In this document: positions 14,321 through 63,900 of the stretch, piece by piece
Position numbering within the stretch: position 1 is the stretch's first letter
Layout of the letters: every line of letters starts with the position of its first letter
Virus record (IMG/VR): IMGVR_UViG_3300030060_002740
Span: 1-64,000 of that record
Reading direction: 5' to 3' (one strand)
Source of the DNA: a virus
DNA: 64,000 nucleotides
Position numbers and translations under genes: made by a program
The notes under the pieces: generated by a model
Told to the model about the DNA's origin: nothing
What the model saw: the letters and a program-made list of their open reading frames with translations, nothing else
Databases searched by the model: none

Positions 14321-15231
14321 TCATCCAACTCCGTTTGATTGTTATCTTTCATTATCTTAGATACATCCCACCCCATTGCTTCATAGATAGGTTCGGCTTT
14401 ACTTACAATAGAAGAAGCATAATGCCTGTAATCAGGTGTGTATCCTTCCAACTCAGCATAGGTGCTTTTTGAGATGTACCTTGGACTGACATATGTTTTA
14501 TTCATAGGATGGTAATACGTATCTGTAATATTGACTATTTTCAGATACAAGTACGAGTCATCTATCTCGTTGTCAGGATTTGTGTAATTGTGATAGATTA
14601 CTCCTTCTATACCTGAACCTATAATTGCTCTCTTGCCTTCTAATGTTACATATGTAGGATTATTGCAACAAACTTTAGTTGGGTCATTTACTAAATCCAT
14701 CAGCGATATCTTAGGGTTCTTTCTCTTAGAATAGAATCCTTCCTTTGTACAATTACTACATTTGACGTTGAACCTTTCTTCACGATATCTACTTCGTTGT
14801 GCAAGTTTGGATATTTCAATATCTCCACTCAAAACTCTTCGATACTCAGACTGTAAGAAAGAAGTTATCTCTTCTTCTGTCTGTTCTTTAACCCATCTGT
14901 CTAAGACTTCTAATTGAATCTCCTTAGCAAGAGGAGTGATTGCTACTCTCTTTGCCGTGAATCCTGTCATTGTGAATTGTAACTCATCGAGAAACTCTCC
15001 GTCTTTCCATGATATCAGACCTGCATTTCTATTCTTTTTACATCCCACACCCAACGTCTTGAAGAACTTCTCAAACTCTAAGGTTACAGGGTGTTCCTCT
15101 AATCCCAACAAGTTTGGAAACTTCTCCCTGACATGAGCATTGAGAATCTGTAAAACATCTTCTGCCTTACTAATATCATCATCTCCCATCTCTACATAGA
15201 TGGAATCTGTGTGTCCATAAACTACTTTCAT
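14311..15231 (-). CDS. polB: Family B DNA polymerase, C-terminal subunit (motif C + thumb)
   Basis: Begins KVVYGHTDS (motif C variant), LEFEK, KKNRNAG; Zn-finger-like insert. Confidence 0.85.
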   Translation of the reverse strand: MKVVYGHTDSIYVEMGDDDISKAEDVLQILNAHVREKFPNLLGLEEHPVTLEFEKFFKTLGVGCKKNRNAGLISWKDGEFLDELQFTMTGFTAKRVAITPLAKEIQLEVLDRWVKEQTEEEITSFLQSEYRRVLSGDIEISKLAQRSRYREERFNVKCSNCTKEGFYSKRKNPKISLMDLVNDPTKVCCNNPTYVTLEGKRAIIGSGIEGVIYHNYTNPDNEIDDSYLYLKIVNITDTYYHPMNKTYVSPRYISKSTYAELEGYTPDYRHYASSIVSKAEPIYEAMGWDVSKIMKDNNQTELDEWF

Positions 15232-20815: not shown

Positions 20816-21736
20816 TTATACCATCTGTCCTATCATCCAAGATGCCAACACTTTAGGAGTCATATTACTACTTCTCCATTCGGCTTCCCCAACTACACGG
20901 AGTAACTTGAACTTAGACTGTCGCCCTACATCCGTCTTCAAAATAATATCGTGTAGATTTACACAGATGGTTTTCATATCAGTAGACGTGTGTATCAATT
21001 TATGCACCTTCTCCAAAGCATTAGTATGGTTATTCTCAATTATCATGTTTATTATTTCAGAGTATGGCTCAAGGCTCTTGTCTATCTGACTTTGTAGGCT
21101 TCTATTTGAAGAGGATGAAGCCTGTAATTCGTTAATCCCTCGTCTTAAATCACCCTGCAAATAGGTAATGAAGGTTTCTAAGTCTTCATCTGAGTACCTA
21201 TTAATGTTTTCAGAATCCAAGATATTTCTCAAAATACTGAACATATTATCAGAAGAAATCCTCTTGAATCCATAGTTAGCACACCTTGAAAGCAAGGGTG
21301 AGATAATCTTGTGTCTATCATTGCAAGTGATGATGAATCTACAATTGTCAGAGTATCTCTCCATCACTCTCTTGAGAGCATTCTGAGCATCCTTCGTCAT
21401 ACCATCCATCTCATCAAGAAGTATAATCTTGAATGGTGCTTCACCCAATCTCTTAGTTGTTGCAATATCCTTAATCTTCGTTCTTACAGTTTCTAATTTT
21501 CTGTCATCAGAAGCATTGATTTCAAAGAAATTACCTTCCCTGTCCTCTCCTAATATATCATTCACTAGTGAGATGGATGCTGCGGTTTTACCTGTTCCCG
21601 CAACACCATACAAAATCACATTAGGCATATTTCTGTTTAGCACCCAATGTTCAGCATCGTGAACAAAGTTACTCTGTCCTACTATACCACTCAAAGCGGT
21701 TGGTCTATATTTTTCAGTCCATAACATTTTCATCAT
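20816..21736 (-). CDS. rfcS: Replication factor C small subunit (clamp loader)
   Basis: WTEKYRP, GVAGTGKT, EINASD, LDEMD, AQNALKR, SRC. Confidence 0.95.
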   Translation of the reverse strand: MMKMLWTEKYRPTALSGIVGQSNFVHDAEHWVLNRNMPNVILYGVAGTGKTAASISLVNDILGEDREGNFFEINASDDRKLETVRTKIKDIATTKRLGEAPFKIILLDEMDGMTKDAQNALKRVMERYSDNCRFIITCNDRHKIISPLLSRCANYGFKRISSDNMFSILRNILDSENINRYSDEDLETFITYLQGDLRRGINELQASSSSNRSLQSQIDKSLEPYSEIINMIIENNHTNALEKVHKLIHTSTDMKTICVNLHDIILKTDVGRQSKFKLLRVVGEAEWRSSNMTPKVLASWMIGQMV

Positions 21737-23969: not shown

Positions 23970-25526
23970 CTAAGACATCATTTGTATGTCTAAAATCGAG
24001 TTACAGTCTTTCGGGAACTTGTCATTGCGTATCTTTACGACTCTCGGAAATCGTAGTCCATACTCACCTTCACTATCTTGAGTAATAACATCACAAGTAA
24101 CCTCAAGAACTATTCTCGGTAAGATATGGAATGTATCTCCTGAATACTTCTCTACTACTTTCTTCAACTCGGTTGTAAGATATGCTAAATCACCATCAGA
24201 CAGTCCTGTTCCTACTGAGCCAACTGACTTGTAGCCACTAGATGAGGATGAATCCAGTACAGATATACCAAACGTACCAAACACGTTTCTTCTCTTGCCG
24301 TCACCATATTGAGCAGATGTAATTACAACATCCAAATCAATTCGTGGTGGTTTATGTTTTACCATAGCAGAAGTTCTTTTTCCCGCCTGATACGTTGCTC
24401 CTAAATCTTTAATCATAATTCCCTCAAAGCCATCGTTGATAGCCATATTGTATGCTCTTTCAACATCACCGTCAGTATATGCTCTAACTCTATTCCACGA
24501 AGGGAAGTCAGGTAAGTGCATTAGCCTCTCACGGTATGTCTGTTCGATTAATGGTACATCCATATAATGTAGGATATCAAATATTACCATATGAACTGGA
24601 CAATCTTCAACTGCTTTTTCAATGTCTTTAGAGTGTACTCTTGTTGCTAGTTTCTTATGTTCAGCCGGAACATCGGAACCTACGCGAACAACTGGATATA
24701 TCTCAGTATCTAATATGAAGTTAGAGGCATTGAATCTCTTCGCTAACTCTACGATATCAGGATATTGATATGTTACAATCTTACCTTTACGATTGAATAT
24801 AATTACACTATCCCTATCTCTATGAATTTGATATCTATTACCATCATACTTGACATCTATGATGTAGTCATTAGGTAACTTGTAGGGTGATTCGTGCTTC
24901 TTCGCTAAAGAACATGGGATGAACTTACCAACGCCTGTCATACAGGGTGGTTCATTTCCGTTTGATAGGTATCTGTATATCTCAACAGGACTATGATATT
25001 TCACATACTTTTTGATGTCTGAGTTGGGATATCTCCTTTTCAGAAGTCTTTCCACTGCCTTTTCACCTATGCCGTTTCTTGGGCTTCTCAACCAATATCT
25101 CAAAAACCACTTCAATTCAAGAGCAGACATAACATTTGTTCTTTCTTGAAAGACTGAGTAGGCATCACTATTGATAGAGGAACAGTCTGTGATTAACAGA
25201 CTATGAAGTTCCTTCAATGTTATATTAGAATCAACAGTGAACTCATCAGATAGAAACTGCATCATGCCTTCTGATAAATCCCCCCAAACATCTGCTTGTG
25301 TTTTTACTTCATCTTCAAACATACCAAAGGAATTAGCAATCCATGTTATTGCTCTTTTCTGACCAATGTTGTTCACTTCATATTCCAAAGATAATATCTC
25401 AAGAAGAATATGGGGGTCTTTGAAGGCGTTCAATGATTCGTCTATAATACGAATCTTGTCTACTGTTCTATTTTGTTGTTCTATTGCTTCACTCATTCTT
25501 GCAAATCTAATCAGACTCATTCTCAT
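23970..25526 (-). CDS. lig: ATP-dependent DNA ligase (replication module)
   Basis: KYDGNR, ILDTE, FDIL, EGIMIK, VGSVGTG, LRFPR. Confidence 0.95.
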   Translation of the reverse strand: MRMSLIRFARMSEAIEQQNRTVDKIRIIDESLNAFKDPHILLEILSLEYEVNNIGQKRAITWIANSFGMFEDEVKTQADVWGDLSEGMMQFLSDEFTVDSNITLKELHSLLITDCSSINSDAYSVFQERTNVMSALELKWFLRYWLRSPRNGIGEKAVERLLKRRYPNSDIKKYVKYHSPVEIYRYLSNGNEPPCMTGVGKFIPCSLAKKHESPYKLPNDYIIDVKYDGNRYQIHRDRDSVIIFNRKGKIVTYQYPDIVELAKRFNASNFILDTEIYPVVRVGSDVPAEHKKLATRVHSKDIEKAVEDCPVHMVIFDILHYMDVPLIEQTYRERLMHLPDFPSWNRVRAYTDGDVERAYNMAINDGFEGIMIKDLGATYQAGKRTSAMVKHKPPRIDLDVVITSAQYGDGKRRNVFGTFGISVLDSSSSSGYKSVGSVGTGLSDGDLAYLTTELKKVVEKYSGDTFHILPRIVLEVTCDVITQDSEGEYGLRFPRVVKIRNDKFPKDCNSILDIQMMS

Positions 25527-29664: not shown

Positions 29665-30576
29665 TCAAATTACTATTGCATTTTGCATTATATCATTCAA
29701 TCCATATAGATGAATGTTCTTTCTTTCTATTCCCAACATCTCACAAATAATATCAGTGTGATTACGTAGTGTTACCTCTGATACACTGAAATGTTGCTTT
29801 ACGTCTATTTGCCTTATCGGTGTGTTAGTCAGTTTACCTACCATCCACAGTGTTGTTGCTAATTGGCTATCGGCAAACCTCAAATCTCTTTCATTGTATT
29901 TGTTCTGAATAAACTCAACGAAATTGAAGTAGTCTCTTCTATCTTTAACCGACTGATAGTTTGATTCAAACCAATCCAAGAACCCCGTCACCATGTTGTG
30001 TATATCTCTTTCAGCAAAGATATGTGACTTCCTGTAAAACTTGGCAACCTTCTTTGCTATTCTTGAAACCCTTCTCATCTCTATACCGCTTGTCTTAACA
30101 AAGTCCTTCAATGAAACATTGCCATTATCCATCAACATGAAATATGCTAAACCTGCTGCCCTGTCATCTATCGAATGCCCCCGAAATATCTGATGTTGCA
30201 TTAGCCGTTGGTATAGGTATATTACATGGTCAACGTCTATTGCATCACCACTCTTGTAAGGAGACATGAACATAACACACAAACGATGTGCTTGAGCATC
30301 GGTTTTACTATGGTACTGTTTATCTGAAACAACTCTTCTTTGAAGTTTAGATAGCATATGCTTTCTTGTCAGTATGTTCTGCTCGTTGAAATTACCGACA
30401 AATGACCCCAAGGTTCTGTTATTATCAATAGAGTGTGTAAATTCACTGTTATGTGTTGCACGAACAGTCTCCTCAAACATATCGCAATTCAAGACTAAAC
30501 CACAATCAGAACATATTGTATATCCTAATCGCTCATCGAACTCAGACGAGTTTGAACCGCACTCCGAACACTTCAT
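29665..30576 (-). CDS. tfb: Transcription factor B (TFIIB)-like protein
   Basis: CSECG...GYTICSDCGLV zinc ribbon; cyclin-fold repeats; C-terminal HTH VSEVTLRN. Confidence 0.85.
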   Translation of the reverse strand: MKCSECGSNSSEFDERLGYTICSDCGLVLNCDMFEETVRATHNSEFTHSIDNNRTLGSFVGNFNEQNILTRKHMLSKLQRRVVSDKQYHSKTDAQAHRLCVMFMSPYKSGDAIDVDHVIYLYQRLMQHQIFRGHSIDDRAAGLAYFMLMDNGNVSLKDFVKTSGIEMRRVSRIAKKVAKFYRKSHIFAERDIHNMVTGFLDWFESNYQSVKDRRDYFNFVEFIQNKYNERDLRFADSQLATTLWMVGKLTNTPIRQIDVKQHFSVSEVTLRNHTDIICEMLGIERKNIHLYGLNDIMQNAIVI

Positions 30577-31889: not shown

Positions 31890-32193
31890 TATTATTTTCC
31901 TCCTTTTTCCAAAATTCTGTATCGCCATAATTGTGATGATACCAACAATCTCTTTCGATTGCTTCTGCAAGTTCTTCCATTGATTTGAAGGTTGAATGAC
32001 CTCCAATAATGATACGTTTCATACCTCTGTAAAGATATCTGTAAGTACATTGACCCGTCTTATACAGGGTAAATTTACGATGTAGTTGCGATACTTGCGG
32101 AACGCCAATACAACTTTCTTTCATTCTATTTTCATAGAAGACAAAATCTCTTGGTTTGATTAGTATTTCAGATTTCACAAACTCCACCGGCAC
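31831..32193 (-). CDS. Hypothetical protein
   Basis: ORF on the operon strand; start uncertain. Confidence 0.4.
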   Translation of the reverse strand: MPVEFVKSEILIKPRDFVFYENRMKESCIGVPQVSQLHRKFTLYKTGQCTYRYLYRGMKRIIIGGHSTFKSMEELAEAIERDCWYHHNYGDTEFWKKEENNNENKIQNPINRRRKGLGDK

Positions 32194-34060
32194 AGGCTAG
32201 TTCGCCTTGTAGATTGGTGGAGTCTTCGTATTCTTTAACCTCACTCAAGTCAATTGAGTGGAGTTTACTAACGAGACTGTCGTATTCCAATAGGGTTATT
32301 TCTTCCATAGGTGCTTGTTCGTATGTACCCCCATCATAAGGTAGGAAGGCCATACCATTGTAGTATTCTCTGTTATCCCAAAGCCACTCGGTAACTCTCT
32401 TCCATTCAACATCACGAACATACACTGTTGCTGATACGTTATGTGTATTATTTCCACGAACATGTCCAGTCTTTACCCATCCCTTTGATACTGCCTTAAT
32501 CCTGTTAAGCATACCAATAGCATCTTCATCACTACGAATTATCGCGGAAGTGTCGGGTATCTTTTGTGGGATAGTCAGCACTGCATCTCCATATGACATC
32601 CTATCGTCCTCAATAAGTTCGGGCAGTTTCTCAACAAGATAAGGATATATTGCTTCTCCCTTGCCTATACGGATTCTTCTTGCATAGTAATATCCATACC
32701 ATGCGTGAATACCACTTGATGTACCTAACACACAACTGGTTGTTCCGGCAGGTTTGACACAAGTAGTTCTTGCTGCCGTATTAATACCAAACATTCTTGC
32801 AAATCGTTGATTGATTATCTTAACCATATTCGCCCCATCTGATAACCACTCATCCTTTACCTTCTGACTAGCAATGCCAGTCATAGAAACACCAATCAGA
32901 GCATCCTTCTCTGTTGTTCTTTGCCATATGCCTCTAAGGTAGTGGAAGTCGGTGTATGTTGCTTGTAATGTACCCAAGAAAGATGCTGCCTCTACTCTTT
33001 GGAGGAAGTCTTCTTTTGACATTACACTCGATACGTTCACTTCACACAAATTACAAAATTGATAGGGTCTAAGTGCTATCTCACAACAGGGGTTAGTTCC
33101 CCAATCCTTGTCGTTGGATAGGTAAATACCGGGTTCACCGCTACCACTCTTTTCTATCTTCTTCATCAAAGACTTGAATGTGTCTTTGTCTAACTTATGG
33201 CGTAGTAGAACTGCTGAATTGTTTGCTCTACCTCTTTGTGGGTTTAGTTCCCACCAACTTCCTGATTTGCATAGAGCCATCTCTTCATCATCAGCACTGA
33301 ATAGGCTGATTAACGCTGCTCTGCGAATACCACCTGCTAAAACTGAATCAGCAATATGACAAACCATATCGTGAACTTGTATGGATGTCATCTTGTGACC
33401 ATTAGGCATATCTCTCAACATACCTTCAATGATAGTAAGGCATATTCTAAGTGGTTCAGGACCGGGTGCTTTTCCTCCACTTGTCTTCAGTCTTGCACCC
33501 TTTGCTCTTATGTCTGAATAATCGAATCTTGGGCTTGCAGTTCTCTTGCCAGTATAACTGTTGAAAAGAACCTTAATTGCGTCAGCCCAACCTTCTATTG
33601 AATCTTGAATCTTATATCTGTAAGTTCTATCAGATAGTGGTTGTTGAATATGTGGTAGTTTAGCCACATGATGTCTCTGAACAGAATAACCTACACCTGT
33701 TCCACCTAATAGTAAGAACATTGCTTCACTGAAAGATGTAATGTTATCAATTGGCATGTACGCACAATTGTATATTCTGTTCGGAGACAATTCAACTGGT
33801 TTACCTGCGAATTGCATTGACCTCATTGAAGGCAATACTTTCTTAGTCATCACAAAGTTATCATATACATAGTGTATCTGTTTTTCAACAACAGTTCTGT
33901 TTGTCTGACTAATTGGAAGTGCCTTAATATGCTTAAGGTGCATATCTCGGTTCCTGTTACATATCTCTTCCCAAGTTTCCTTCCTTTCTTCTGCTTCGTT
34001 CCATTTTGCGTATTTGGTATTAACCACTATTTCTGATAATACTTCATTTCCTAATTTCAT
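32168..34060 (-). CDS. nrdJ: Class II (B12-dependent) ribonucleotide reductase
   Basis: YNCAY, GGIRRAA, TNPCCEI, VKPAGT, C-terminal CAGGVC. Confidence 0.92.
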   Translation of the reverse strand: MKLGNEVLSEIVVNTKYAKWNEAEERKETWEEICNRNRDMHLKHIKALPISQTNRTVVEKQIHYVYDNFVMTKKVLPSMRSMQFAGKPVELSPNRIYNCAYMPIDNITSFSEAMFLLLGGTGVGYSVQRHHVAKLPHIQQPLSDRTYRYKIQDSIEGWADAIKVLFNSYTGKRTASPRFDYSDIRAKGARLKTSGGKAPGPEPLRICLTIIEGMLRDMPNGHKMTSIQVHDMVCHIADSVLAGGIRRAALISLFSADDEEMALCKSGSWWELNPQRGRANNSAVLLRHKLDKDTFKSLMKKIEKSGSGEPGIYLSNDKDWGTNPCCEIALRPYQFCNLCEVNVSSVMSKEDFLQRVEAASFLGTLQATYTDFHYLRGIWQRTTEKDALIGVSMTGIASQKVKDEWLSDGANMVKIINQRFARMFGINTAARTTCVKPAGTTSCVLGTSSGIHAWYGYYYARRIRIGKGEAIYPYLVEKLPELIEDDRMSYGDAVLTIPQKIPDTSAIIRSDEDAIGMLNRIKAVSKGWVKTGHVRGNNTHNVSATVYVRDVEWKRVTEWLWDNREYYNGMAFLPYDGGTYEQAPMEEITLLEYDSLVSKLHSIDLSEVKEYEDSTNLQGELACAGGVCEI

Positions 34061-37123: not shown

Positions 37124-37654
37124 TCAGTAATTAACCGCCATTTGTGTGTACCACTCAGGCGGATAATGAGGCCACTTCCAAGAAGCGAACCATTTCTTAT
37201 CATGTATGTAGTAGGCACGATACTTTTCGACAACTGAAAGGTCATCGAAATTCTCAACCTTTTGCCTACATAGTTGGTTGTGGGATATTGCAACTGCAAA
37301 GGGCGTTAGCCCAATATCAGGAAGCATTTCCTCAACCTTATCGAAAACATCGGAATACTCTTCCAATGTCATTGCGACTTTGTGTGTGTTACCAGTGTAC
37401 CAGTAACGTTTTGCGTATGTGTCAAGCAATCCTTCAAGATGGCTTCTCAACCACTGGAAGTTCTGTCTTGTTTCTCTTGCCCAAATAGTGCAAGGATGGT
37501 TTAACATTATGGGGTCATAAGGACTATCCAAACCTAAGTGGTCTGCAATAGTGGACATCATCTGCATTGATTCAAGTGGCATCTTCACGGAATGTTTGTC
37601 TATTACCAAACTTGCCGCTACTTTAGGGTCTTCGTCAAGGATGAATATGTTCAC
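37124..37654 (-). CDS. Pyrimidine-dimer DNA glycosylase-like protein
   Basis: MNIFILDEDP...DKHSVKMPLESMQM...NHPCTIW...YRAYY...PPEW. Confidence 0.75.
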   Translation of the reverse strand: MNIFILDEDPKVAASLVIDKHSVKMPLESMQMMSTIADHLGLDSPYDPIMLNHPCTIWARETRQNFQWLRSHLEGLLDTYAKRYWYTGNTHKVAMTLEEYSDVFDKVEEMLPDIGLTPFAVAISHNQLCRQKVENFDDLSVVEKYRAYYIHDKKWFASWKWPHYPPEWYTQMAVNY

Positions 37655-37980
37655 TCTTCCTCACCTGCCATTGCATCAATATAATTCATACGAAGTGCCT
37701 CCTCAAGACTCTTTATTCTCTTGTCCATTGCAATTAAGACAGAACGAACAGAGTCGAATTTAGCATCGTATTCATCTATCTTATTATCATAAGACTTCAT
37801 CATCTTATCAACGAACTTTGCCTTCTTCTCAATCTTAGCATCAACCGCTCTCCTGTTTCTGGAAACACCAGAATCGCAGTCGTGACAAAACTTGAGATGA
37901 CTTGTGTTAGTTCTAACATAGAATTGCTTGTTGCATCTATGTCCATCTTTCATTACTTTCTGACAATATTTGTAAGGCAT
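37651..37980 (-). CDS. Zn-finger / coiled-coil protein
   Basis: C..C..CHDC followed by heptad repeats. Confidence 0.5.
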   Translation of the reverse strand: MPYKYCQKVMKDGHRCNKQFYVRTNTSHLKFCHDCDSGVSRNRRAVDAKIEKKAKFVDKMMKSYDNKIDEYDAKFDSVRSVLIAMDKRIKSLEEALRMNYIDAMAGEEE

Positions 37981-37989
37981 TATTATTTC

Positions 37990-38700
37990 TCTCCATTCTC
38001 ATTTGTTGGTTTAGGCAAGAAAGCGTAGGGCAAAATAAGTCCCTTTAACCAAAGGTAAATGACTTGTGCTTTTTTACTTGGTAAACTTGCCTCATAATCC
38101 CCGCCCAACAGTAGGGGTTTGAGTGTAATAGTAAGGTGAAGACATTGCACCGCAACTGGTTTCGTCTTCATTAAGTTCGTATTGCCTCGTCAGGACTTAC
38201 GCAATTGAACGCCTTACTCTTGTGTGATAACATGAGTGTGTTGGGAGTGCAGTTTTACCTGCACCCCCGTTATCAGGGTTTGAGTCCTGATTGTTTTGTG
38301 TGATATTTGTGAGTGTGTGTTGTGGGGATGAATAACGTACTGTGCCGTCTATCTCGGAGAGCATACAAAAAGTAAAGGTAACTCTTCCAATTTATTTACC
38401 GCAATGCCGACTACTCTTTTTTATAGCGCAAAGTAACCCAATGGTATGTTCAAAGGGTTAGGCAACTCATTAACATCTTTCTAAATCTCACCCGCCTAAA
38501 CGGGGCTTGACTTGTCCAGTGCCAAAGGCGAACTCCTGTATCTTAAATTCAATTACTGATAGATACCCACAATCCCAACTGTGCCGTTACTAGGTCACTC
38601 CGTCATTCCTCCTAAGAGTCACTACTTCGCTTGTCAGATGACAAACCGCTAAGTTTGCCAAACGCTTTTCACGTCCTTCCACAAATGTTGAGTATGTTCA
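37990..38700 (-). ncRNA. Candidate large structured non-coding RNA or leader
   Basis: About 700 nt with no credible ORF, multiple stems and CA-rich linkers on the minus strand. Confidence 0.35.
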
Positions 38701-39110
38701 TTTATCATCCATTTCTCACGCCGATGATAAATATTAATCTGCGTAAACAATACCGTTTCGCAGGTTTTTGGCGTTCATTTCTCGTTTCTCACGTTTATCA
38801 TCACCCCTAGTAATAATAATAGGGGGTATAATATATTAGAGAGAGTGTGTGTGTAGTAGTAATAATATAATGATAATAATGATAAATGATAATTGAATAT
38901 CAAAAAATATTGATTCTATCCAAGAATCCCAACTTTCTACCCCTCGACCTTTCTCATTTCTATGATAATCGGTGAGAAATGAAAGGAGAAATCAGAACTC
39001 ATATCAGATAGAATATAACTATACTAAATCTCATACTAATATTAGTATAATATATTATATTATATTATGACCCTGTTTGATACCCGATAAATTATAGTGA
39101 TATTTAGGGA
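38695..39110. other. Candidate replication origin
   Basis: Very AT-rich, with repeated TTTCTCA/TGAGAAA and TTATCAT/ATGATAA words, at the switch of the coding strand. Confidence 0.45.
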
Positions 39111-39277
39111 GCAAACCTTTCGTGATGAACAACTAGTGTTCGTTAAGTAGCACATTAGGTAATGACTACGCTGAAGGGGTCGGATTCTACAATATGAAAT
39201 CCACCTCCGAGGGTATATGTACCCTGCCCGACCACGCTGACCCCTCTGCCGACTTTATTTCCAATGCGTGTCTAACA

Positions 39278-39309
39278 ACCATATGGTAGGCTACTTTGTC
39301 AGACACCCC
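39278..39309. repeat. Spaced palindrome copy 1 (right half only)
   Basis: ACCATATGGT 39278-87, ACTTTGT 39293-99, ACCCC 39305-09. Confidence 0.85.
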
Positions 39310-39623
39310 ATATGAACCTTAGATTGGTCAGGGCTTACATCCCAAGTAGCCTTGTGAATGCCTGTTGTGAGAATATATGGGGCATCGGAACATTGACGCC
39401 AGTGCTATATGAGTTTTCAAGGTCATCTAAGATTCACTGTCCAGTCAGTGTCATGAGTAACTGAACCATTTGCCCGAAGAACTTTCCGTTCTCGCATTCC
39501 ACTTGTGTTTTACTCCTCTCATTAACTCTATTGTTTGTTCGTCAGCCCCATATGGGAATAGGTCGAGGATGAGAATGCGAACTATTCTCATAAATCATCT
39601 TCGCTGATGAAACCTCGTTATGT

Positions 39624-39806
39624 TTATTGTCTAAGGATGGTATTGAATACCTTCAATGCTGAATCTAATTGTTCTAATGCACTGGGTAGGTCATCACTAC
39701 GAACCTTAAGGCTCTTGATGATTAGAACGTGGTCTTGACCCGACTTGGAGTGAGCCACTTCTAACTCGTATGGGTATAACTTGCCCTCAACTATCTGTGC
39801 TGTCAT
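39624..39806 (-). CDS. Small hypothetical protein, probably leaderless
   Basis: ATG lies 27 nt from the GGGG of palindrome copy 2. Confidence 0.6.
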   Translation of the reverse strand: MTAQIVEGKLYPYELEVAHSKSGQDHVLIIKSLKVRSDDLPSALEQLDSALKVFNTILRQ

Positions 39807-39828
39807 ACCTTGTACCTACGAAGTGAGA

Positions 39829-39898
39829 TATATGGGGTCTTTCCTACAAAGTGTCACTACCATATGGTTGGTATACTTTGTCAGATAAACCCCATATA
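39829..39898. repeat. Spaced palindrome copy 2 (symmetric, 70 bp)
   Basis: TATATGGGGT-N7-ACAAAGT-N6-ACCATATGGT-N6-ACTTTGT-N7-ACCCCATATA. Confidence 0.95.
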
Positions 39899-39971
39899 GT
39901 TAATATCCGACTAATACAGTGCTTAGAAGGGTTTGAGAAAATCCGATTGTTTTGAATAAAGGTGATAAAAG

Positions 39972-40442
39972 ATGGAATGGAAAGAATTTTCAGGTACAAC
40001 ATTAGCATGGCTAAAGAATGACAAGACTGTTGATGAAGCAGACGCTTCAACTATCAGCAGAATGATTGAGAAGGGTAACGCAAACCCTACACGACAGGTT
40101 CGTATTTCGACCACAATCCGAGAGATTGCGAGAGATTACGCAACTGCCCCATATGGACAGAGAGGATACGCTCTACCCACAAACGCACAAAGCATTGTAA
40201 ACGATGTGACTGCAATAGTGAATGAGATGGCTTCTCTCTTTGATAACGGTGGAGATGCTATTAGAGCATTGCTTCTACCTAACCAAAGGAGCAAGGTCAA
40301 GCATTACCCTAACGGGTCTGCTTGGGCCTCTTCAGTTCTAAAGAACGTGAACGGCGTAGCAGTCAAACTATCCAAAGACGGAACTTGGGATGGTTCGGCT
40401 GAGAGTCTATCCGCTACAATTTCGGAGGTAACTTCGGAATAA
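39972..40442 (+). CDS. Hypothetical protein, paralog A
   Basis: AGGTGA RBS; aligns with 41623..42153. Confidence 0.75.
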   Translation: MEWKEFSGTTLAWLKNDKTVDEADASTISRMIEKGNANPTRQVRISTTIREIARDYATAPYGQRGYALPTNAQSIVNDVTAIVNEMASLFDNGGDAIRALLLPNQRSKVKHYPNGSAWASSVLKNVNGVAVKLSKDGTWDGSAESLSATISEVTSE

Positions 40443-40480
40443 GCGGGTAACTCTCATTGCCCTTCTAAGCACCCGTTCTT

Positions 40481-40543
40481 TGGGGTTTGAGATTACAAAG
40501 TATCTCTTACCATATGGTTTTGCACTTTGTCGTTAGAACCCCA
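40481..40543. repeat. Spaced palindrome copy 3
   Basis: TGGGGT..ACAAAGT(40495)..ACCATATGGT(40509)..ACTTTGT(40524)..ACCCCA. Confidence 0.95.
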
Positions 40544-40571
40544 CTTATACCTCAGTTAGAACCTAATTAAC

Positions 40572-41493
40572 ATGAGTAGCAATCTATTTACAAAGAGACA
40601 TTACGAATGGCTTGTTGATATGGCTTTATCCTTACAACTAACCCAAGAACAATGCAGAGAATTGGCTGATATGTTAGAGAAAACGAATCCTAAGTACAAT
40701 AAGGCTAAATTCATTACCACCATTGTCCATACAAGAAATACGAGGAGTGGAGGAATATGATAAGGGACAACATAATGAAAGTTTGCAGAGGATGCCTATA
40801 CGTAATGGAACATAAGTGGACAAGGAAAGGGTATGCCTGTAAAAGATGCCTACATATAACAACGGAGAGATATTAATGTATAAAATAATAAGATTTAGGT
40901 TTGATGGAAATCATAGAACAATGAAGAGAGGACTTACTCTTGAAGAAGCAAAAGCACATTGTCGCGACCCTGCAACTAGTGGCGACGGTTGGTTTGATGG
41001 ATATACGGAGGAGTAAGATATGATAGAGTGCATACGGTGCAAAGAATGCGGAAATATAACAATCAAGCCGGAGGATGAAGAGTTCTTCAGTGAATGGGAT
41101 GAATGTATGTGTAGAGTAAATGAAATATTGGAGGAATACGAATTATGAGTATAATAACAAGTTGGAGAATTGAAGTAACGTTAGAGAATGGAGAAACAGT
41201 GTATGTATCAGACATGCCTAATGACGTTTCTAGTGTGGTTGATGAATACCTCACTGAGTTGGAGGCTGATTAAATGATGAAATTAGTTTTGAGAGTAGAA
41301 ACAGAAGAATACATCTTTGAAAGGTGGGTCTATGCGTGAGAGAAGTAACGCATTACCGGAGGATAGTTTGCCCTCTTGGGTTTTCTATATGGAGGAATGC
41401 CCTAAATGCGATTGTGTAATCAATGAAGGCCATGACTACGCTGAATATGATATTGAAGTGTGTGACCCCGATGAATGCGGAGAAGAGGAATAA
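40572..41493 (+). CDS. Operon of seven micro-ORFs (40572-40760, 40757-40876, 40876-41016, 41020-41148, 41145-41273, 41274-41339, 41332-41493)
   Basis: Overlapping or abutting start/stop codons, mostly with GGAG(G)-type RBSs; three are Cys-rich. Six are below the ORF-track cutoff and were translated manually. Confidence 0.7.
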
Positions 41494-41509
41494 ATCTCTT
41501 ACTCCCATC

Positions 41510-41571
41510 AGGGTATTATGACAAAGTATCCTACCATATGGTATGAACTACTTTGTGAATTTGAATACCCT
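41510..41571. repeat. Spaced palindrome copy 4
   Basis: AGGGTATT..ACAAAGTA..ACCATATGGT(41533)..TACTTTGT..AATACCCT. Confidence 0.95.
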
Positions 41572-41622
41572 AATACCCTAAATAGAGACATAATACCGTC
41601 TAAAACGACAGGAGAAACAAAT

Positions 41623-42153
41623 ATGACCGAAAACAAATGGACTGAGTTCACTGAGAAGATAACACAATGGAAAAGAGCGAATAAGGGATGGAACGACCCC
41701 GAACATAAGTCGTATCAAGAGGATTTAGATTCTCTTGACCGAATCATGAAGAAGGGTAGGAAGGATGAAGGCCGAAGGGCTAGAATCATGTCTACTGTTC
41801 GCACTCTCTTTATGGATATACCAACATCACCATTCAGAACAGGCAAAGCCTCTTCGATTGATGCGGGTATGCTTGCAAAATACAACAAAAGCCGAATTGA
41901 TGCCCGAACTGCCTTGATTACTGCATGGAATGCGTCAAAGTTCCTTCAGATGTATGAAGTAAAGAGCAAAAGAGGCGGAGGCGGAGTTTTCGCCACTGCT
42001 GAAGAGTATGCTGACTATCAATTGAGTTCATCGGACTCAAGAGTTCACTCAGCAATGCGTGGAACATCAAAAGACTATCAGTTCGCTGATGGTAAGCCTC
42101 TAATCAACCTTATACCTCAAAAGGTAGTACCTCTATCAGAGTTATTTGATTAG
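41623..42153 (+). CDS. Hypothetical protein, paralog B
   Basis: AGGAG RBS before the ATG at 41623; aligns with 39972..40442. Confidence 0.75.
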   Translation: MTENKWTEFTEKITQWKRANKGWNDPEHKSYQEDLDSLDRIMKKGRKDEGRRARIMSTVRTLFMDIPTSPFRTGKASSIDAGMLAKYNKSRIDARTALITAWNASKFLQMYEVKSKRGGGGVFATAEEYADYQLSSSDSRVHSAMRGTSKDYQFADGKPLINLIPQKVVPLSELFD

Positions 42154-42213
42154 ACGGACCAAAAGTAGGGGGGGACACCCTAAAACTCGCCTCAGTCCCC
42201 CTCTACACCCTTC

Positions 42214-42278
42214 GGGGTCTTATGTTCGCAAAGCAATTACAACCATATGGTTGCTACGAACTTTGTGACGTTAAACCC
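42214..42278. repeat. Spaced palindrome copy 5 (between convergent genes)
   Basis: GGGGT..GCAAAG..CAACCATATGGTTG..ACTTTGT..ACCC, flanked by UUCG-loop hairpins. Confidence 0.9.
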
Positions 42279-42304
42279 TGAGAGGATGCCCGAAGGCAAT
42301 CCAA

Positions 42305-42568
42305 TCAGTATCCGTCCTGAACCCTAATTGTCTCAACGAAATACTTTGGGTTTTTGAGCATCTCACGGATTTGGTGCATCCTTTCAACGCCCTTACCACG
42401 AATAGCACCATTGAGGGTTGCAATTTCAGCAGTCAATCTGTCTATCTGTATTGCATTCATTCTTTTTACTTCCCGAATTGCACTTCTCTCATATTGGTGG
42501 TATTCTGTGATTCTAACTGTGTCATCTGCGTAGTTTCTGCTCTTTATTGCATACATTGTTCTTGTCAT
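42305..42568 (-). CDS. Small hypothetical protein, probably leaderless
   Basis: MTRTMYAIKSRN...; ATG lies 32 nt from palindrome copy 6. Confidence 0.6.
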   Translation of the reverse strand: MTRTMYAIKSRNYADDTVRITEYHQYERSAIREVKRMNAIQIDRLTAEIATLNGAIRGKGVERMHQIREMLKNPKYFVETIRVQDGY

Positions 42569-42596
42569 GTAGTATATATCCACCTTTTCGGGTATA

Positions 42597-42664
42597 ATTA
42601 GGGTTCTTTCTGCAAAGCATAGAACCATATGGTAGTATATACTTTGTAGAAATGCTACCCTAAT
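42597..42664. repeat. Spaced palindrome copy 6
   Basis: ATTAGGGT..TTTCTGCAAAG..ACCATATGGT(42624)..CTTTGTAGAAA..ACCCTAAT. Confidence 0.95.
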
Positions 42665-42687
42665 ACCCACAATATCTTGATAATACC

Positions 42688-43452
42688 ATGAGCGTAACAT
42701 ACGAACAAACAGCGAAATACACATACAGCGAAGAGAAGTTTAGCGACAAAGCATTCTGCAAGGTTGCTAAGAAACTAATGGACAGAGGGTTGACTTTAGT
42801 TGGTTGGCACTATTCAGCATCGCCACCAGAGATAGTTTATGGCGAAGTCGAAAAGGAAACAGTCGCAACCGACTATGAGATTACTATTGGTGGTAAATCT
42901 GCATTCACTACTCAGTACCGTTCAACTGCTAACGATATTGTAGCGGAGTTGGAAGGCAATGGTTTTGATGGTGGTATTTCAGAGGTCACTAGGAAGACCA
43001 CTAAGATGGTGTGGCAACAGCCAAAAGGCTCTAAGATGTATATGCAAGTCTCAAACTTTGAGGGTGAATTGTCATACTACAAGCAGTATCTCACATACAG
43101 TATAGTCCATCCAAGGAATGACGGCATGGAAGATGACTTGGCTGAAGTGGAACTAGTACCTAAACTCACTAACTCAAACGATGGAGTCATACTGACTATG
43201 AAAACGATTCTAAAGTTAGATAGGGTTCTGAGGGCTGACAGAGTAAAACCGAGTATGGTTGATATTACTCTACATGACTTTGGCCTAATCAAGAGTAAGG
43301 TCGAAGACGCACTCGGTATTCGTAATGCTATATTGAAGGACTGTACTTTCAATGTGAATACCCTCAGTGAAACTGAGTGTTCACCCGATATCATTTACCA
43401 AAGGGAAGTAGCGACCCAATCAGCGAGGGATGGCCCACAAGAAGAAGAATGA
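42688..43452 (+). CDS. Hypothetical protein, probably leaderless
   Basis: ATG lies 27 nt after the ACCC of copy 6; followed by a GAAA-loop hairpin. Confidence 0.7.
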   Translation: MSVTYEQTAKYTYSEEKFSDKAFCKVAKKLMDRGLTLVGWHYSASPPEIVYGEVEKETVATDYEITIGGKSAFTTQYRSTANDIVAELEGNGFDGGISEVTRKTTKMVWQQPKGSKMYMQVSNFEGELSYYKQYLTYSIVHPRNDGMEDDLAEVELVPKLTNSNDGVILTMKTILKLDRVLRADRVKPSMVDITLHDFGLIKSKVEDALGIRNAILKDCTFNVNTLSETECSPDIIYQREVATQSARDGPQEEE

Positions 43453-43474
43453 ACGTAAACCCATTGTCCCGAAA

Positions 43475-43517
43475 GGGGCTTTGTGGTCGTTTATACAAAG
43501 TTATCCAACCATATGCT
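43475..43517. repeat. Spaced palindrome copy 7 (left half only)
   Basis: GGGG..ACAAAGT(43495)..ACCATATGCT(43508). Confidence 0.75.
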
Positions 43518-43592
43518 TTGCATTGCAAAATTTTTTTGTTTCATTGTTTCTATTACCCAAAGTTAATTTGTATAACCTCTTAGCGAACACCA

Positions 43593-45982
43593 ATGACCGA
43601 TGAGGCTGTTATTTTAGAACTGGTAAAAAACGCCAATAAGATACTGTCCTCAATACGAGAAGAAATTGACAACATAAAGGTTCAAGGCAAGTTAGACCCT
43701 TCTTTGGATAAGAAATTAGTTGCAATAAAAACCGCTACAAAACAACTCGGTAGTGAGATATTAAACAAGGTATTCAGACAAACACGCTTAACAGATTATG
43801 AGGGCTTTGGCACTAAATGATTTTTATTCTGGTTATAGGTGAAAAAGATGGAAAAAATTTTTGCTAGTCCCGAAAAAATTCCAGCCCATTTTTTGAAAAA
43901 AGACGGGGTAGAATCTTTTGACCTATGGTTTGATACACTTCACAAGGACTTTCAGATGGCTAAGACCGAAGGTGGTGTTGATGATGCTATTGATGAGTTA
44001 GAGGAAGTAGTGGAAGAGTTCGACTTGACCGAGAATGAATGGGCTTCGGTTGATGATGCGTCTGATTACCTCTTTGAGCATAAGTACAAAGATAAGATGA
44101 AGAAGAGTTGGGCCGATATCATAAAAGCCACTATGAAAGCACCCCGTATTCCAAGAAAGAAAGGACAGAAAAGAAACTCAAAGGAGCATTCTGATTTGTA
44201 TACAGATGAAAACCCAAAAGGAACTATTCATGGTTTGGGATTCAAGGATGAGGAGAAGTCTAGGAAGTCTGTTTCTAAGATAAAGAACAGTAACAGAAGT
44301 CATGCACATAAAACACAAGCCGCAATAGCAATGGAGCAAAGAGCAAGGGAAATGGGTAAGACCAAAGAAGCAGCGATATACAGGAAGTTCATAGAACAGC
44401 AGAAAAAGAAAACCGAGGCTAGAAAATGAAACAGTGGTTGATTAGAAAGTTGATTGCCTTAATGGGTAACACCTATGTTTGGTTGGACAAGAAGTTAGTT
44501 CATCCTGATGGGCCAGTTCTAGGTTTGGAGATTGATGATGACTTTGCTAAGATGAGCAGATATGAGTTATGTTGTCACATTGAGGATAAGTTCGGATTAG
44601 AGAGAGATTCTTTTTGGAAGTTGGAATCTACACAGAAGATAAGGTTCTGTTCTCAAACTGCAAGGAACATACTTACGCCAAAAAAGAGGAAGAAGAAATG
44701 AGTAACTTAAGCAAGTTTGATAGTCTTCATCATAGTGCGACTATGCAGGGTTCACTAAGCACCGATGATGATTCTTGGTTTAACATACTAAGAATGGGAG
44801 GGGCGGTAACGTCAACCTCAAGTGGTACATCGGCATTATTCAACAATAAAACGGGAGGGGGAAAAAGACGTGGTAAAAAGAAAAAGAGTCTCAAAAGACA
44901 AAGGTATCAAGACGAAACTACCAGACGGGACAGACGCTACAATCAACGTAAGTAAAAGGTCTTTTGGACAGAATTTCCAAGAGTGGGAAAGAAAAGCCGG
45001 AGGACTTTCAGGTGATTCAATTGGGATGATTAGTCCTGAAGCCAGTAACATGACTTTACTCGATGTAGTGAAAGAACAAGGAGTAATTGGAAGAATCAAG
45101 GGAAAGAAGGGAAGTAAGATAAAGGGCAAAGGTGGAGTTGCTATCTTCAAGGCGTTGAAAACTATCTTCAATAAACCTGATATGTCCAAAGGACAGTTAC
45201 CTGCCTTGAAAGCATTGGATACACTAATGAATGCGATTGAGGGAAGTTCTGCTGACCCTCGTAATATTGTATTCTCTAATCCGGTGGATTGGTCAGAAGA
45301 CACTGGAAGAGTCTTGGATACTGAACCTGTTTATGGACATTATAGAACTGATGAGTATGAAACTGTTAGAGATTTGAAAGACGAGGATGTTCCCGCAGTT
45401 TCATCAGAATGGTATAATGATTCCAAGAATGCTGCCACACCACCATTTTGGCAAGCACTTTATGGTAAGGGAACTAATGCTCCTTTCAATTCTCCAAGCC
45501 TACATATGATAATTAAACAGGCTATCAAAGATATTGGGGATGCCCCAATAATTATCAACAAGGACAACCCTGTTCCCATCGAGGGTAAGAAGGCTGCAAC
45601 TACTGCCCTCACAATTTCTGTATTGAGAGGCATAGTGGAAACAGAGTTGAATAATGGAAAAGAGGGTAAGTCATTTCCTGATAGTAAAGTTAGAAGATTG
45701 ATTATGGGGCAACCGTTTGATATTAGAACGGAAAAGGAATCCGAAGCAGTCAAGTCCCTCAAGAAACTGAACATTCCAAATGACATCGAGGAGTGTTGGT
45801 TCAAGTTATCAAGAAGACAAGTTAAGTTGATGGCTTTTGAACTTGCTAAGAGAAAAGGCGTGAAGATGCACTTCAGACAAGCAAGTGGAGATATTGCAAG
45901 AAGCCCATTGGTCTTCGGAGAAAGACCTGACCCTGATACTGAGAAGAAATCTCTTGATTGGAAAGGGATGTTAGCGAGGTGA
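43593..45982 (+). CDS. Five hypothetical late genes (43593-43820, 43839-44429, 44426-44701, 44698-44955, 44870-45982)
   Basis: Coupled ORFs, several Lys/Arg-rich; 43839 carries DLYTDENPKGTIHGLGFKD. Confidence 0.55.
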
Positions 45983-61296: not shown

Positions 61297-63900
61297 TTGA
61301 GGGGTCAGATGCCGCAAACAGGAATAGAGTTTGAAAAAGAAACTAGTGGCCTCACAAAACAGGTCTTAGATTTCTTTGAGAAGGTTCGTTATTCCTATCT
61401 TTCAGCAAGAGAAAATCCCGATGACTACGGGGATGCTTGGAAAAAAACAGTAAAGGATATCAGAGAACAATTAGATTCTCTTGATGATTTCAGCAATGAG
61501 TTGAAAACTTATGTCAAGGAAGACTTGGCTCAATCTGATGAAGCATACAATCCAAAGTCAAGACAAGCAAAAGAATTGTACGAAGCGGTAAAAGAACTTA
61601 GGTTCAAATCCGAAAAAGTCAGTGACCCGTTTTCAAAACAACTTGGTGATGATGTAATACCTAAGTTGTTGAAGAATGAAGCATTATTCGCTTATTTTAT
61701 TCATTATGCACTACGCTCTCATGCAAATGCTTTACCTGAAAAAGCGTGGAAGGCAGTGGAACTCAAACCTGACAAGATAACTCAAAACGTGATGGGTTTG
61801 GATTTAGAGCCAAAGGACATACCGCTATACATCATAGAACATTATGGCGGGGAAGAGGAAGACACAAGAAGAGTAGAGAGTAAGTTCAAGGGGGCTTACA
61901 AATTATTGGAGAAGGTGTATGCCTCTCAATATGATGAGGGTAAATGGGAGAATCTTGTTGAGTTAGATATTGCTAAGAGTGAGCAAAAGCAAGAAATTGA
62001 TTTTATCGTTCCCAACAAACCAATGTATAGAATCTTTGAGATAGATGACATGAAGGAAATCAAGGGTCTTACTGGTGAGTACATTGTCCAAGAGAAGTAT
62101 GACGGGATGAGAATACAACTTCACAAGTTCAATGGTAAAGTCAGAATATACTCTTTCAATGAAAAAGACATTACAGATAAGTGTTCAAAACAAGTTAAGC
62201 AATTAGAAAAGAAAGCATTTGGGGATTGTATCTTAGATGGAGAACTCATGTTGTTTGACGGTGATGAACCACTACATAGAGCAGATACAATAGCCCATGT
62301 TTTCAAGAACAAAAAGGGTGGTGAACTAAAAGCACACGTCTTTGATATTATGGTTCATGAAGGAAAGAACATCGCTGATGAAACCCTAAGAGAAAGAAAT
62401 AACATTCTTCTGTACCAATACGCTCAACATTCATCAGAAGACTTAGCATTCCCATCTAAGAAAGATACAAGGATTGCTGACTCCATAAAAGAAGTAGAAA
62501 CCTATGCTAAAGAAATAATGCAGTTACCTGCATCAGAAGGTGTGGTAATCAAGGATATAGAATCAACATACTACATTGGGGTTAAGAAAAATCCTAAGTG
62601 GATTAAGTGGAAGAAGTTCGTTGACTTGGATGTTATAGTTTTAGATGATAAGAAAACAAAGAGCAACTTACATTCCTACACAATGGGAGTTGGGCCAGTA
62701 AATGCTGAAACTGCTAGGAACTACAAGACTGTTGAGTTTGAGGATAAAGACTACTTAGAAGTAGGTAAGGCTCTCAATACAAAACAATCAGTAAAGATTG
62801 GTAGCATAGTCAGAGTGAAAGTTGACGAGGTTAAAAAAGGAAAGGACGGTTTCAAATTGTTCTCTGCTAAAGTTATAGAGATACCTGAAGTAACACAATC
62901 GGATACTGTTGAAACATTAGAGCAATTAGCAAGTAAGACAAAGAAATCTCTCAATGCAATCGGATACACCTTTGGAGAAACAGTAGGCGGTGCATTTGAA
63001 GTTACATCAGGAATGAAGAACCCAAGAGGTCAGACTAAGAAAGATGTAAAGAAAGGATATTACATTACAGACCACATACATGGAACTGCTGAGATTATTC
63101 TAAAGGAGGACATGGATGGTTTCACAATCTATGGGTTTGAGGGAGATTCTCTTATGCAGAAGAATGCTCTATACAACATAGATATGTGGAAAGAACAAGT
63201 GGTTAGTATAATGAAAAGTAAACGTTCTACCTTTAGATTGGCTATCCGCAATGAGATATTAGACAGTGGTAGAGATAATCTAAGGTTTGAGCAGATATTA
63301 GATTATGTCAAAGACAAACATCAAGGAACCTTTGAGGATTTATTCGACTCAGATGAAGGAAGATTAATGTCTTGGATGAAACAACAAGAAGATTTGGTTT
63401 ATCTTCATCCCAACAAGTTTACTGCAAGAGAAGACGTATTGGAAAAGGATGTTGAAGAATTACAAAAAGAAGAAATGGGAAAGTATACAATTAATCTTAG
63501 AGAAGATAATAATGTTGATTTAATCATAGAATACAAAGACGAGCGTATGGGTTGGACTATTGATATTGAAGAGTCAGAAGACATATACGAGTTGTTTGGT
63601 AAATCAGGTAAGTATCCGGCTATTGTTATGAAGAATGCAGGTGAGCCTAAGAAAGTCTTAGATAAAGGAAATATAGAATTAGGAATTCAAAAAGATGGAT
63701 ACCATGAATATAGATTAGATGGAGATAAGTTCCAAACAAGAATGCACTTTAGAGTAATTCCTTTAGATGAACAAAAGAGTTGGATAGCATGGACAGGAAA
63801 GAAACAGGAAATGTTAGACGATGAAGAGAACCCAAATAAATGGAATCTGAATGAAGACTCTTATGCTCAATTACCTTTCCCTTCGGATAAAAAAGAGTAA
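61297..63900 (+). CDS. Second ATP-dependent DNA ligase with long N- and C-terminal extensions
   Basis: EKYDGMR, LDGE, FDIM, EGVVIK, WIKWK; the C-terminal LDKG..ELG...YRLDGDKF segment recalls the LigD phosphoesterase fold. Confidence 0.85.
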   Translation: MRGQMPQTGIEFEKETSGLTKQVLDFFEKVRYSYLSARENPDDYGDAWKKTVKDIREQLDSLDDFSNELKTYVKEDLAQSDEAYNPKSRQAKELYEAVKELRFKSEKVSDPFSKQLGDDVIPKLLKNEALFAYFIHYALRSHANALPEKAWKAVELKPDKITQNVMGLDLEPKDIPLYIIEHYGGEEEDTRRVESKFKGAYKLLEKVYASQYDEGKWENLVELDIAKSEQKQEIDFIVPNKPMYRIFEIDDMKEIKGLTGEYIVQEKYDGMRIQLHKFNGKVRIYSFNEKDITDKCSKQVKQLEKKAFGDCILDGELMLFDGDEPLHRADTIAHVFKNKKGGELKAHVFDIMVHEGKNIADETLRERNNILLYQYAQHSSEDLAFPSKKDTRIADSIKEVETYAKEIMQLPASEGVVIKDIESTYYIGVKKNPKWIKWKKFVDLDVIVLDDKKTKSNLHSYTMGVGPVNAETARNYKTVEFEDKDYLEVGKALNTKQSVKIGSIVRVKVDEVKKGKDGFKLFSAKVIEIPEVTQSDTVETLEQLASKTKKSLNAIGYTFGETVGGAFEVTSGMKNPRGQTKKDVKKGYYITDHIHGTAEIILKEDMDGFTIYGFEGDSLMQKNALYNIDMWKEQVVSIMKSKRSTFRLAIRNEILDSGRDNLRFEQILDYVKDKHQGTFEDLFDSDEGRLMSWMKQQEDLVYLHPNKFTAREDVLEKDVEELQKEEMGKYTINLREDNNVDLIIEYKDERMGWTIDIEESEDIYELFGKSGKYPAIVMKNAGEPKKVLDKGNIELGIQKDGYHEYRLDGDKFQTRMHFRVIPLDEQKSWIAWTGKKQEMLDDEENPNKWNLNEDSYAQLPFPSDKKE

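Follow-up and report, generated by a model that had tools for sequence, protein, structure and literature searches.

Repeated DNA motifs that lie between genes or gene segments are known from several systems. The promoter-early stem-loop (PeSL) regulatory cassettes of T4-like phages consist of sigma-70 promoters with a stem-loop, which stand as direct repeats before co-oriented genes, and their crossovers, spread over about 100 bp, have been ascribed to homologous recombination (Arbiol et al. 2010, PMC2839356; Comeau et al. 2014, PMC4122927). In HGTV-1, a haloarchaeal tailed virus, a TATA-like box and an inverted repeat were found before many open reading frames (ORFs), as summarized in PMC3950731 from the work of Sencilo et al. 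2013. Integrons carry promoterless cassettes in one orientation with a common Pc, and their attC sites are imperfect hairpins recognized by structure, whereas in shufflons and other inversion systems (R64 Rci/sfx, Min, Gin/Cin) parts of one gene are rearranged by a dedicated adjacent recombinase. Here, we analyzed a 64,000-nucleotide stretch of viral DNA (hereafter the window; positions 1 to 64,000 of the 92,413-bp IMG/VR record IMGVR_UViG_3300030060_002740), in which a palindromic motif recurs seven times between positions 39278 and 43517 and delimits six small units. We consider it probable, with moderate confidence, that these units are self-contained, exchangeable gene cassettes of a group-B-like magrovirus, and that DNA is exchanged at the central CATATG of the motif's core.

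The initial annotation of the window had described a spaced palindrome of about 65 bp with seven cores, and this description proved accurate. The exact 10-bp palindromic core, ACCATATGGT, is present in copies 1 to 6 (Table 1), while the core of copy 7, ACCATATGCT, has one mismatch. When a single mismatch was allowed, the core matched nine times in the window as against 1.9 times expected, a number reached by none of 100 shuffled sequences, and the extended pattern CAAAG-N4-12-core-N4-12-CTTTG was found five times (0 expected); in the whole 92,413-bp record it has no occurrence outside the array. Copies 2 to 6 have the outer GGGT and ACCC boxes, with a GGGT-to-ACCC span of 60 to 66 bp, and the boxes are conserved whereas the spacers between them, of 4 to 12 bp, are not. 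Copy 1 has only its right half and copy 7 only its left half, both pointing into the array, and ORF calls indicated divergent junctions at copies 2 and 6, tandem ones at copies 3 and 4, and a convergent one at copy 5, just as had been annotated. Additional CCATATGG octamers are located at 39548, within cassette A, and at 40149, within the gene of ORF family fam0 in cassette B; this octamer occurs 11 times genome-wide (1.1 expected), with 8 of its occurrences in the array region. The octamer at 39548 might be the remnant of a core that decayed where two cassettes fused.

The working unit of the array is the cassette between two cores and not the palindrome. A cassette opens with the half-core ATGGT, which is followed, after a spacer of N4-9, by CTTTG and, after a second spacer, by ACCC, then come the genes, and it closes with the mirror image, GGGT-N-CAAAG-N-ACCAT. 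Since a cassette carries the same inverted repeat at both ends, two abutting ends form the palindrome of about 60 bp, and the ends of the array are inward-facing half-sites. The same rule was found in related viruses, which were retrieved by a pattern scan of IMG/VR that required the core and both boxes, and all counts for relatives given here are among the matches listed. At least 119 stretches in related viral contigs, mostly of 60 to 100 kb, matched the pattern and had arrays of 2 to 11 cores. In arrays with at least three cores and enough flank, the first copy was a right half only in 55 of 81 cases and the last copy a left half only in 55 of 74; inner copies were full in 291 of 406. The 506 inter-core segments had a median length of 600 bp (mode, 650–700 bp), and a single reading direction was observed in 392 of the 422 segments that bear ORFs (≈93%). 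A gene of fam0 or of its homologue fam11 was present in all 37 complete arrays. The cassette proteins matched no Pfam or PHROG family, and a comparison of flanking gene families in relatives revealed neither a single family that flanks every array nor an IntI-type tyrosine recombinase.

A search of 596 Gb of cellular genomes gave 47 matches, which were single and at chance level except for one array-bearing contig, and a host origin of the motif was rejected on these grounds. The exceptional contig (NZ_NZTP01000027.1, 14.7 kb), assigned to an "Altibacter sp." metagenome-assembled genome, bears a complete 9-core array with terminal half-sites, and its fam0 and fam4 genes are 88 to 96% identical to genes on magrovirus contigs. 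We are almost certain that this contig is viral and was mis-binned into a flavobacterial genome. In some relatives, bare ACCATATGGT cores without CTTTG boxes bound gene-less tandem units of about 90–100 bp or about 300 bp, as in L024 (IMGVR_UViG_3300030012_002828, contig positions 91552-91840) and L061 (3300025110_000009, contig positions 6108-7032). The units of about 98 bp carry on their minus strand a GGAGG-like site, an ATG and an ORF of 6–7 codons (MFFDDDE, MFDDDE or MFDDCE), and may represent either micro-ORFs or small RNAs.

The cassettes differ in content, order and orientation between relatives. In the window, the ORF families of all cassettes follow the order fam1(-), fam0(+), fam3..(+), fam0(+), fam5(-), fam4(+), whereas the order in the relative L031 is fam1(-), fam5(+), fam0(+), fam3..(+), fam0(+), fam4(+). 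The fam5 cassette has therefore been both moved and flipped, and its two versions are homologous end to end, including the promoter side and the 3' hairpin. Similarly, two contigs whose flanks are 89–96% identical differ by one extra cassette of 385 bp and one inverted cassette of about 280 bp, both bounded by cores. In L178, the closest relative among the matches listed (77–93% identity), the cassette order and orientation of the window are retained, and copy 6 carries an inserted 96-bp mini-cassette that lacks boxes and has a copy of the duplicated core on either side. Relatives thus differ by insertion, replacement, translocation and inversion of cassettes, and cassettes at least 85% identical to each other had a non-homologous neighbor in 39 of 112 comparisons.

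Junctions of shared cassettes with differing neighbors were anchored on the core and compared gap-free. On the side of the shared cassette, identity was 0.8–0.9 up to the core; it was 1.0 at core positions 1 to 8, 0.95 and 0.92 at positions 9 and 10, respectively, and about 0.5 within five bases beyond the core. Furthermore, a one-base mismatch was found in 36 of 110 terminal cores as against 24 of 379 inner cores, and in 35 of the 36 terminal cases the base concerned was one of the outer two in the half-core pointing out of the array. Since the identity profile of the junctions and the terminal mismatches agree, the exchange is placed inside the core, with the central CATATG common to both partners, and the geometry of the break would correspond to an overlap region or a staggered cut. 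The recombination or shuffling sites suggested by the initial annotation are therefore upheld by the differences among relatives and by the breakpoints at ACCATATGGT, on the scale of evolutionary time only.

The architecture of the array, its conservation, the anatomy of its promoters and terminators, and the breakpoints at the core are all direct observations. In the mechanism that we propose, each cassette would be one transcription unit with its own TATA promoter and often a CCC-loop-GGG hairpin at its 3' end, and both of its ends would consist of the same terminal inverted repeat of about 25–30 bp (half core, CTTTG box and ACCC box). Exchange of DNA would occur at the 10-bp core, specifically at its central CATATG, and over evolutionary time cassettes would be inserted with duplication of the core, replaced, moved and inverted there. 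Since the site is palindromic, a cassette would fit in either orientation, which is consistent with each having its own promoter and terminator. We infer that such exchange takes place actively and repeatedly and that a protein recognizes the core. Pfam searches revealed an AAA_24 (RadA/Sak4-like) ATPase and a Cas4-like PD-(D/E)XK nuclease in the viral genome, and these two might act on the shared core, as has been proposed for PeSLs; alternatively, the enzyme could be a sequence-specific recombinase or nuclease of an unrecognized type.

Several points speak against exchangeable cassettes of this kind. In agreement with the initial annotation, which had recognized no recombinase, the 92-kb genome gave no match to the tyrosine recombinase family PF00589 at E≤1 (with positive controls), none to the serine recombinase family PF00239 and none to three LAGLIDADG Pfam models, nor was any of these enzymes present among the Pfam-scanned ORFs; a LAGLIDADG gene is described for the structural module in the magrovirus literature, and it was not located in the present genome. 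Spacers that range between 4 and 12 bp do not sit easily with one rigid protein binding the DNA, microhomology-mediated recombination would also break at the only shared 10-mer, and the conservation of the boxes across the virus group is partly ascertained because the search pattern demanded the core and both boxes. The identical order and orientation in L178 indicate that rearrangement is infrequent, and shuffling is thus seen on evolutionary time only. Assembled contigs from public runs covering the region show no joint at any core, and an independent sample has the same order over 39917-43307. Some public contigs end at cores, and the contig-level data show one arrangement. For the contig joints within cassette A (39366>39690 and 39617>39325), related strains of 90% likeness are the probable source.

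The presence of fam0 (or fam11) in every complete array suggested it as a core-binding protein, but this candidate was set aside, since its median pI of 4.9 argues against DNA binding. The AlphaFold model of fam0 is confident (pLDDT 89) and all-helical. Foldseek gave nothing at E≤0.001 against the PDB, VIA-align returned only generic three-helix-bundle matches (Z<7), and a PDB profile search, the ESM Atlas and a search of 5.8 billion proteins yielded unnamed metagenomic relatives only. By its predicted properties, fam0 resembles an effector more than an enzyme acting on DNA. As for the enzyme, we tentatively entertain a bolder possibility, namely an orientation-free integron, in which an unrecognized enzyme of virus or host would cut AC/CATATG/GT (slashes marking the cuts) in a palindromic att site and insert, excise or invert promoter-bearing cassettes. 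If true, such a site-specific system would give magroviruses a means of exchanging early, host-takeover or anti-defence genes through the gene pool of the ocean.

At the 5' ends of cassettes, the C-run of the ACCC box is directly followed by T-A-W-W-A, with 87–93% A/T at the first two positions, and the start codon lies a median of 32 nt downstream. Compared with the established archaeal distance between TATA box and transcription start site, this spacing looks like that of an archaeal TATA box before a leaderless or short-leader mRNA, and many of the mRNAs look leaderless. At the 3' ends, the C-run on the sense strand commonly reads CCCTTCGGG(T), a CCC-UUCG-GGG mini-hairpin placed a few bases after the stop codon, and in the window these mini-hairpins are followed by T-rich runs. 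The outer box would accordingly be a dual element that serves both the promoter side and the terminator side. Metatranscriptome contigs, which as assembled sequences cannot give transcript ends, cover parts of cassettes A (39383-39616), B (40016-40359) and E (42321-42486), so that at least three of the six cassettes of the window are represented; the uncovered parts are not evidence of silence. The presence of contigs on these three and their absence from several neighboring stretches argue for RNA and against DNA carry-over.

Such signals could also be explained by a purely regulatory operator, the palindrome binding a dimeric or multimeric transcription regulator, of virus or host, that turns the adjoining early promoters on or off, and insulating the units, with shuffling incidental to the repeats. 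At every cassette 5' end a site does lie about 10–35 bp upstream of the TATA box, sequence is conserved in the boxes but free in the spacers, the metatranscriptome includes cassette genes, and among the viral proteins is a TFB-like one with a TFIIB zinc ribbon. However, we regard this explanation as unlikely. Full sites are kept at 28 of 36 convergent junctions, which are promoterless, and also at tandem junctions, including their 3' sides; because they are kept at convergent junctions and 3' ends, the sites are not only promoters, as the initial annotation had maintained. The promoter or insulator role that it had offered agrees with the TATA boxes after ACCC and with the 3' mini-hairpins, but not as the sole role. 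Moreover, half-sites stand at both ends of the array, one of them at the 3' end of the last gene, bare cores bound mini-cassettes that lack boxes, spacing varies between 4 and 12 bp, and the homology breakpoints fall within the core. The TFB-like protein itself (29665-30576, minus strand, 303 aa) matches the TFIIB-type zinc ribbon with 31.5 bits, above the Pfam cut-off of 29, and weakly matches the TFIIB cyclin repeat (E 0.03); it is possibly a transcription factor encoded by the virus, through which host RNA polymerase could be redirected to the promoters of the virus.

We consider it very improbable that the motif is an RNA-level element, in which the transcribed palindrome folds into a long interrupted hairpin and serves as a processing site or as a terminator for both directions. 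Folded as single-stranded RNA, each full copy reaches -22 to -29 kcal/mol (z -3.6 to -5.4), and the sites are located at the ends of transcription units, where short 3' hairpins precede T-rich runs. However, over 304 sites the complementarity of the spacers was at chance (mean minimum free energy -7.59 versus -7.69 for permuted pairs, z = +0.76), the boxes are conserved in sequence and do not co-vary, a hairpin is impossible for the terminal half-sites, and an Rfam search of 37500-44000 revealed no family.

Exchange of cassettes at the core remains the reading that we prefer, and the virus in which it would take place looks, from its gene content, like a group-B magrovirus. Group B comprises tailed archaeal viruses of about 90–100 kb with a split PolB, RFC, two ATP-dependent ligases, one of them in the structural module, and RNR (PMC5434244). 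Pfam searches of the full 92,413-bp record found all of these genes: a family-B DNA polymerase split between two ORFs (15231-16925 and 14311-15231), an RFC-like AAA ATPase (20816-21736), RNR (32168-34060) and two ATP-dependent DNA ligases (23970-25526 and 61297-63900), one of which is within the structural module, together with structural genes for terminase, portal, prohead protease, capsid and tail tube. The hosts of magroviruses are Marine Group II archaea (Poseidoniales), which belong to the surface ocean's most numerous microbes; both virus and host are uncultured. The array lies at the strand switch between a leftward replication block and a rightward structural block, where the cumulative GC skew has its minimum (~38–40 kb), and an AT-rich, gene-poor stretch of about 900 bp adjoins it directly on the left. 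Although this location would suit a replication origin or a packaging or DNA-entry signal at the boundary of the two modules, such a function is scarcely credible, since the skew minimum coincides with the change of transcription direction and is not independent evidence, copy number (2–11) and copy spacing go with the cassettes and differ freely from one relative to another, and the left non-coding flank, kept in only 2 of 103 related regions, is therefore no constant partner of the arrays. The DNA-entry or terminus signals suggested by the initial annotation thus found no support. A restriction-modification target was rejected as well, CATATG being not avoided genome-wide (46 observed versus 30 expected).

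Table 1. Features of the cassette array, with positions in the window
Feature	Positions	Strand	Details
Copy 1, left terminal half-site	39278..39309		core 39278-39287, ACTTTGT 39293-39299, ACCCC 39305-39309; outer side without CAAAG
Cassette A, 571 bp	39288..39858		fam1 gene 39624-39806 (-); 46-aa ORF 39451-39591 (-)
Cassette A, doubtful ORF, 50 aa	39312-39464	+	
Copy 2, full palindrome, divergent	39834..39893		GGGGT 39834, ACAAAGT 39846, core 39859-39868, ACTTTGT 39875, ACCCC 39889; TATA-like sequence flanks both sides
Cassette B, 640 bp	39869..40508	+	fam0 gene 39972-40442, 156 aa, acidic, all-helical
Copy 3, full palindrome, tandem	40482..40542		core 40509-40518; CCC..GGGG hairpin on left; TATA box on right, 28 nt before ATG at 40572
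Cassette C, 1014 bp	40519..41532	+	operon of six small ORFs 40572-41493, several CxxC zinc-ribbon-like
Copy 4, full palindrome, tandem	41511..41571		core 41533-41542
Cassette D, 699 bp	41543..42241	+	second fam0 paralogue 41623-42153, 176 aa
Copy 5, full palindrome, convergent	42214..42279		core 42242-42251; neither side with TATA box
Cassette E, 372 bp	42252..42623	-	inverted versus neighbors; fam5 gene 42305-42568 (-), 87 aa, basic
Copy 6, full palindrome, divergent	42601..42661		core 42624-42633
Cassette F, 874 bp	42634..43507	+	fam4 gene 42688-43452, 254 aa
Copy 7, right terminal half-site	43475..43517		GGGGC 43475, ACAAAGT 43495, core 43508-43517; mismatch in outer half; no CTTTG box beyond core; T7 tract follows

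Three segments in the vicinity of the array deserve separate mention. The stretch 38830-39070, left of copy 1 at the strand switch, is very AT-rich with short repeats of the ATAAT/TGATAA type and could be a DNA-unwinding, origin-like region or a strong promoter zone. Within the gene-poor region further left, 38342-38581 was matched without differences by a metatranscriptome contig with a depth of about 207, roughly 8–25 times that of the cassette-gene contigs; it has well-conserved blocks in two relatives (L031 and L077) and no Rfam match, and is a candidate for an abundant non-coding RNA or leader. On the other side, 44142-44413, the 3' part of the gene 43839-44429, is 70–74% identical in nucleotide sequence to hypothetical genes of a Pelagibacter phage and of the cyanomyoviruses P-TIM68, S-SM2 and Bellamy, and its contig depth in marine metagenomes is 97–179 versus about 7 for its neighbors; it appears to be a gene segment common to bacterial and archaeal marine viruses.

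The array is a conserved, sharply bounded hot spot at which magroviruses gain, lose and flip small genes. The ACCATATGGT core and its boxes provide a sequence handle for cataloguing the accessory gene pool of the whole virus group, and the array defines archaeal viral promoters and terminators that are open to testing. We found no mention of repeats, palindromes or promoters, nor of such an array, in the magrovirus papers that were searched, and the core sequence was met in the literature only within primers.

The initial annotation had likened the sites to integron attC sites or to PeSLs, and the second comparison is the closer one. As in integrons, cassettes of about 0.5–1 kb are bounded by n+1 sites for n cassettes, the terminal site is distinct and the content is variable. 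However, the sites of the array are conserved in sequence and lack the spacer complementarity of attC hairpins, which was at chance over the 304 sites; the cassettes have their own TATA boxes and both orientations; the genome has no tyrosine recombinase; and it belongs to a virus of archaea. With shufflons and other inversion systems the array shares segments that are flanked by short inverted repeats and occur in either orientation or order, but here whole independent genes are rearranged, the rearrangement is seen between relatives, and the genome has no PF00239 or PF00589 recombinase. The identity of the array as an integron or a shufflon was thus rejected, since neither a tyrosine nor a serine recombinase was found in the 92-kb genome. 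HGTV-1 is closer in being an archaeal tailed virus with a repeated motif for which roles in regulation and genome shuffling were proposed (PMC3950731); according to that summary description its motif has another sequence, and the ACCATATGGT core occurs in the HGTV-1 genome at chance (4 matches versus 4 in a control).

The resemblance to PeSLs includes (i) a composite promoter and terminator motif that stands between small ORFan genes in a hyperplastic, variable region and gives each gene its own expression signals and (ii) insertions, deletions and replacements between close relatives that map to the motifs, for which a role as linkers in modular shuffling has been proposed. By contrast with PeSLs, the magrovirus array has a true palindrome made of two cassette ends, both orientations, inversions and half-sites at its ends; its 10-bp core is the only contiguous shared sequence as well as the breakpoint, and its promoters are of the archaeal TATA type. 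What looks new is a junction whose palindrome is formed by cassette ends, together with half-sites at the limits of the array, cassettes in both orientations with documented inversion, and a 10-bp crossover core. If a dedicated enzyme exists, it would stand for a new family of recombinases or nucleases that target a 10-bp palindrome, whereas if there is none, the array would be the clearest archaeal counterpart of PeSL-mediated modular shuffling.

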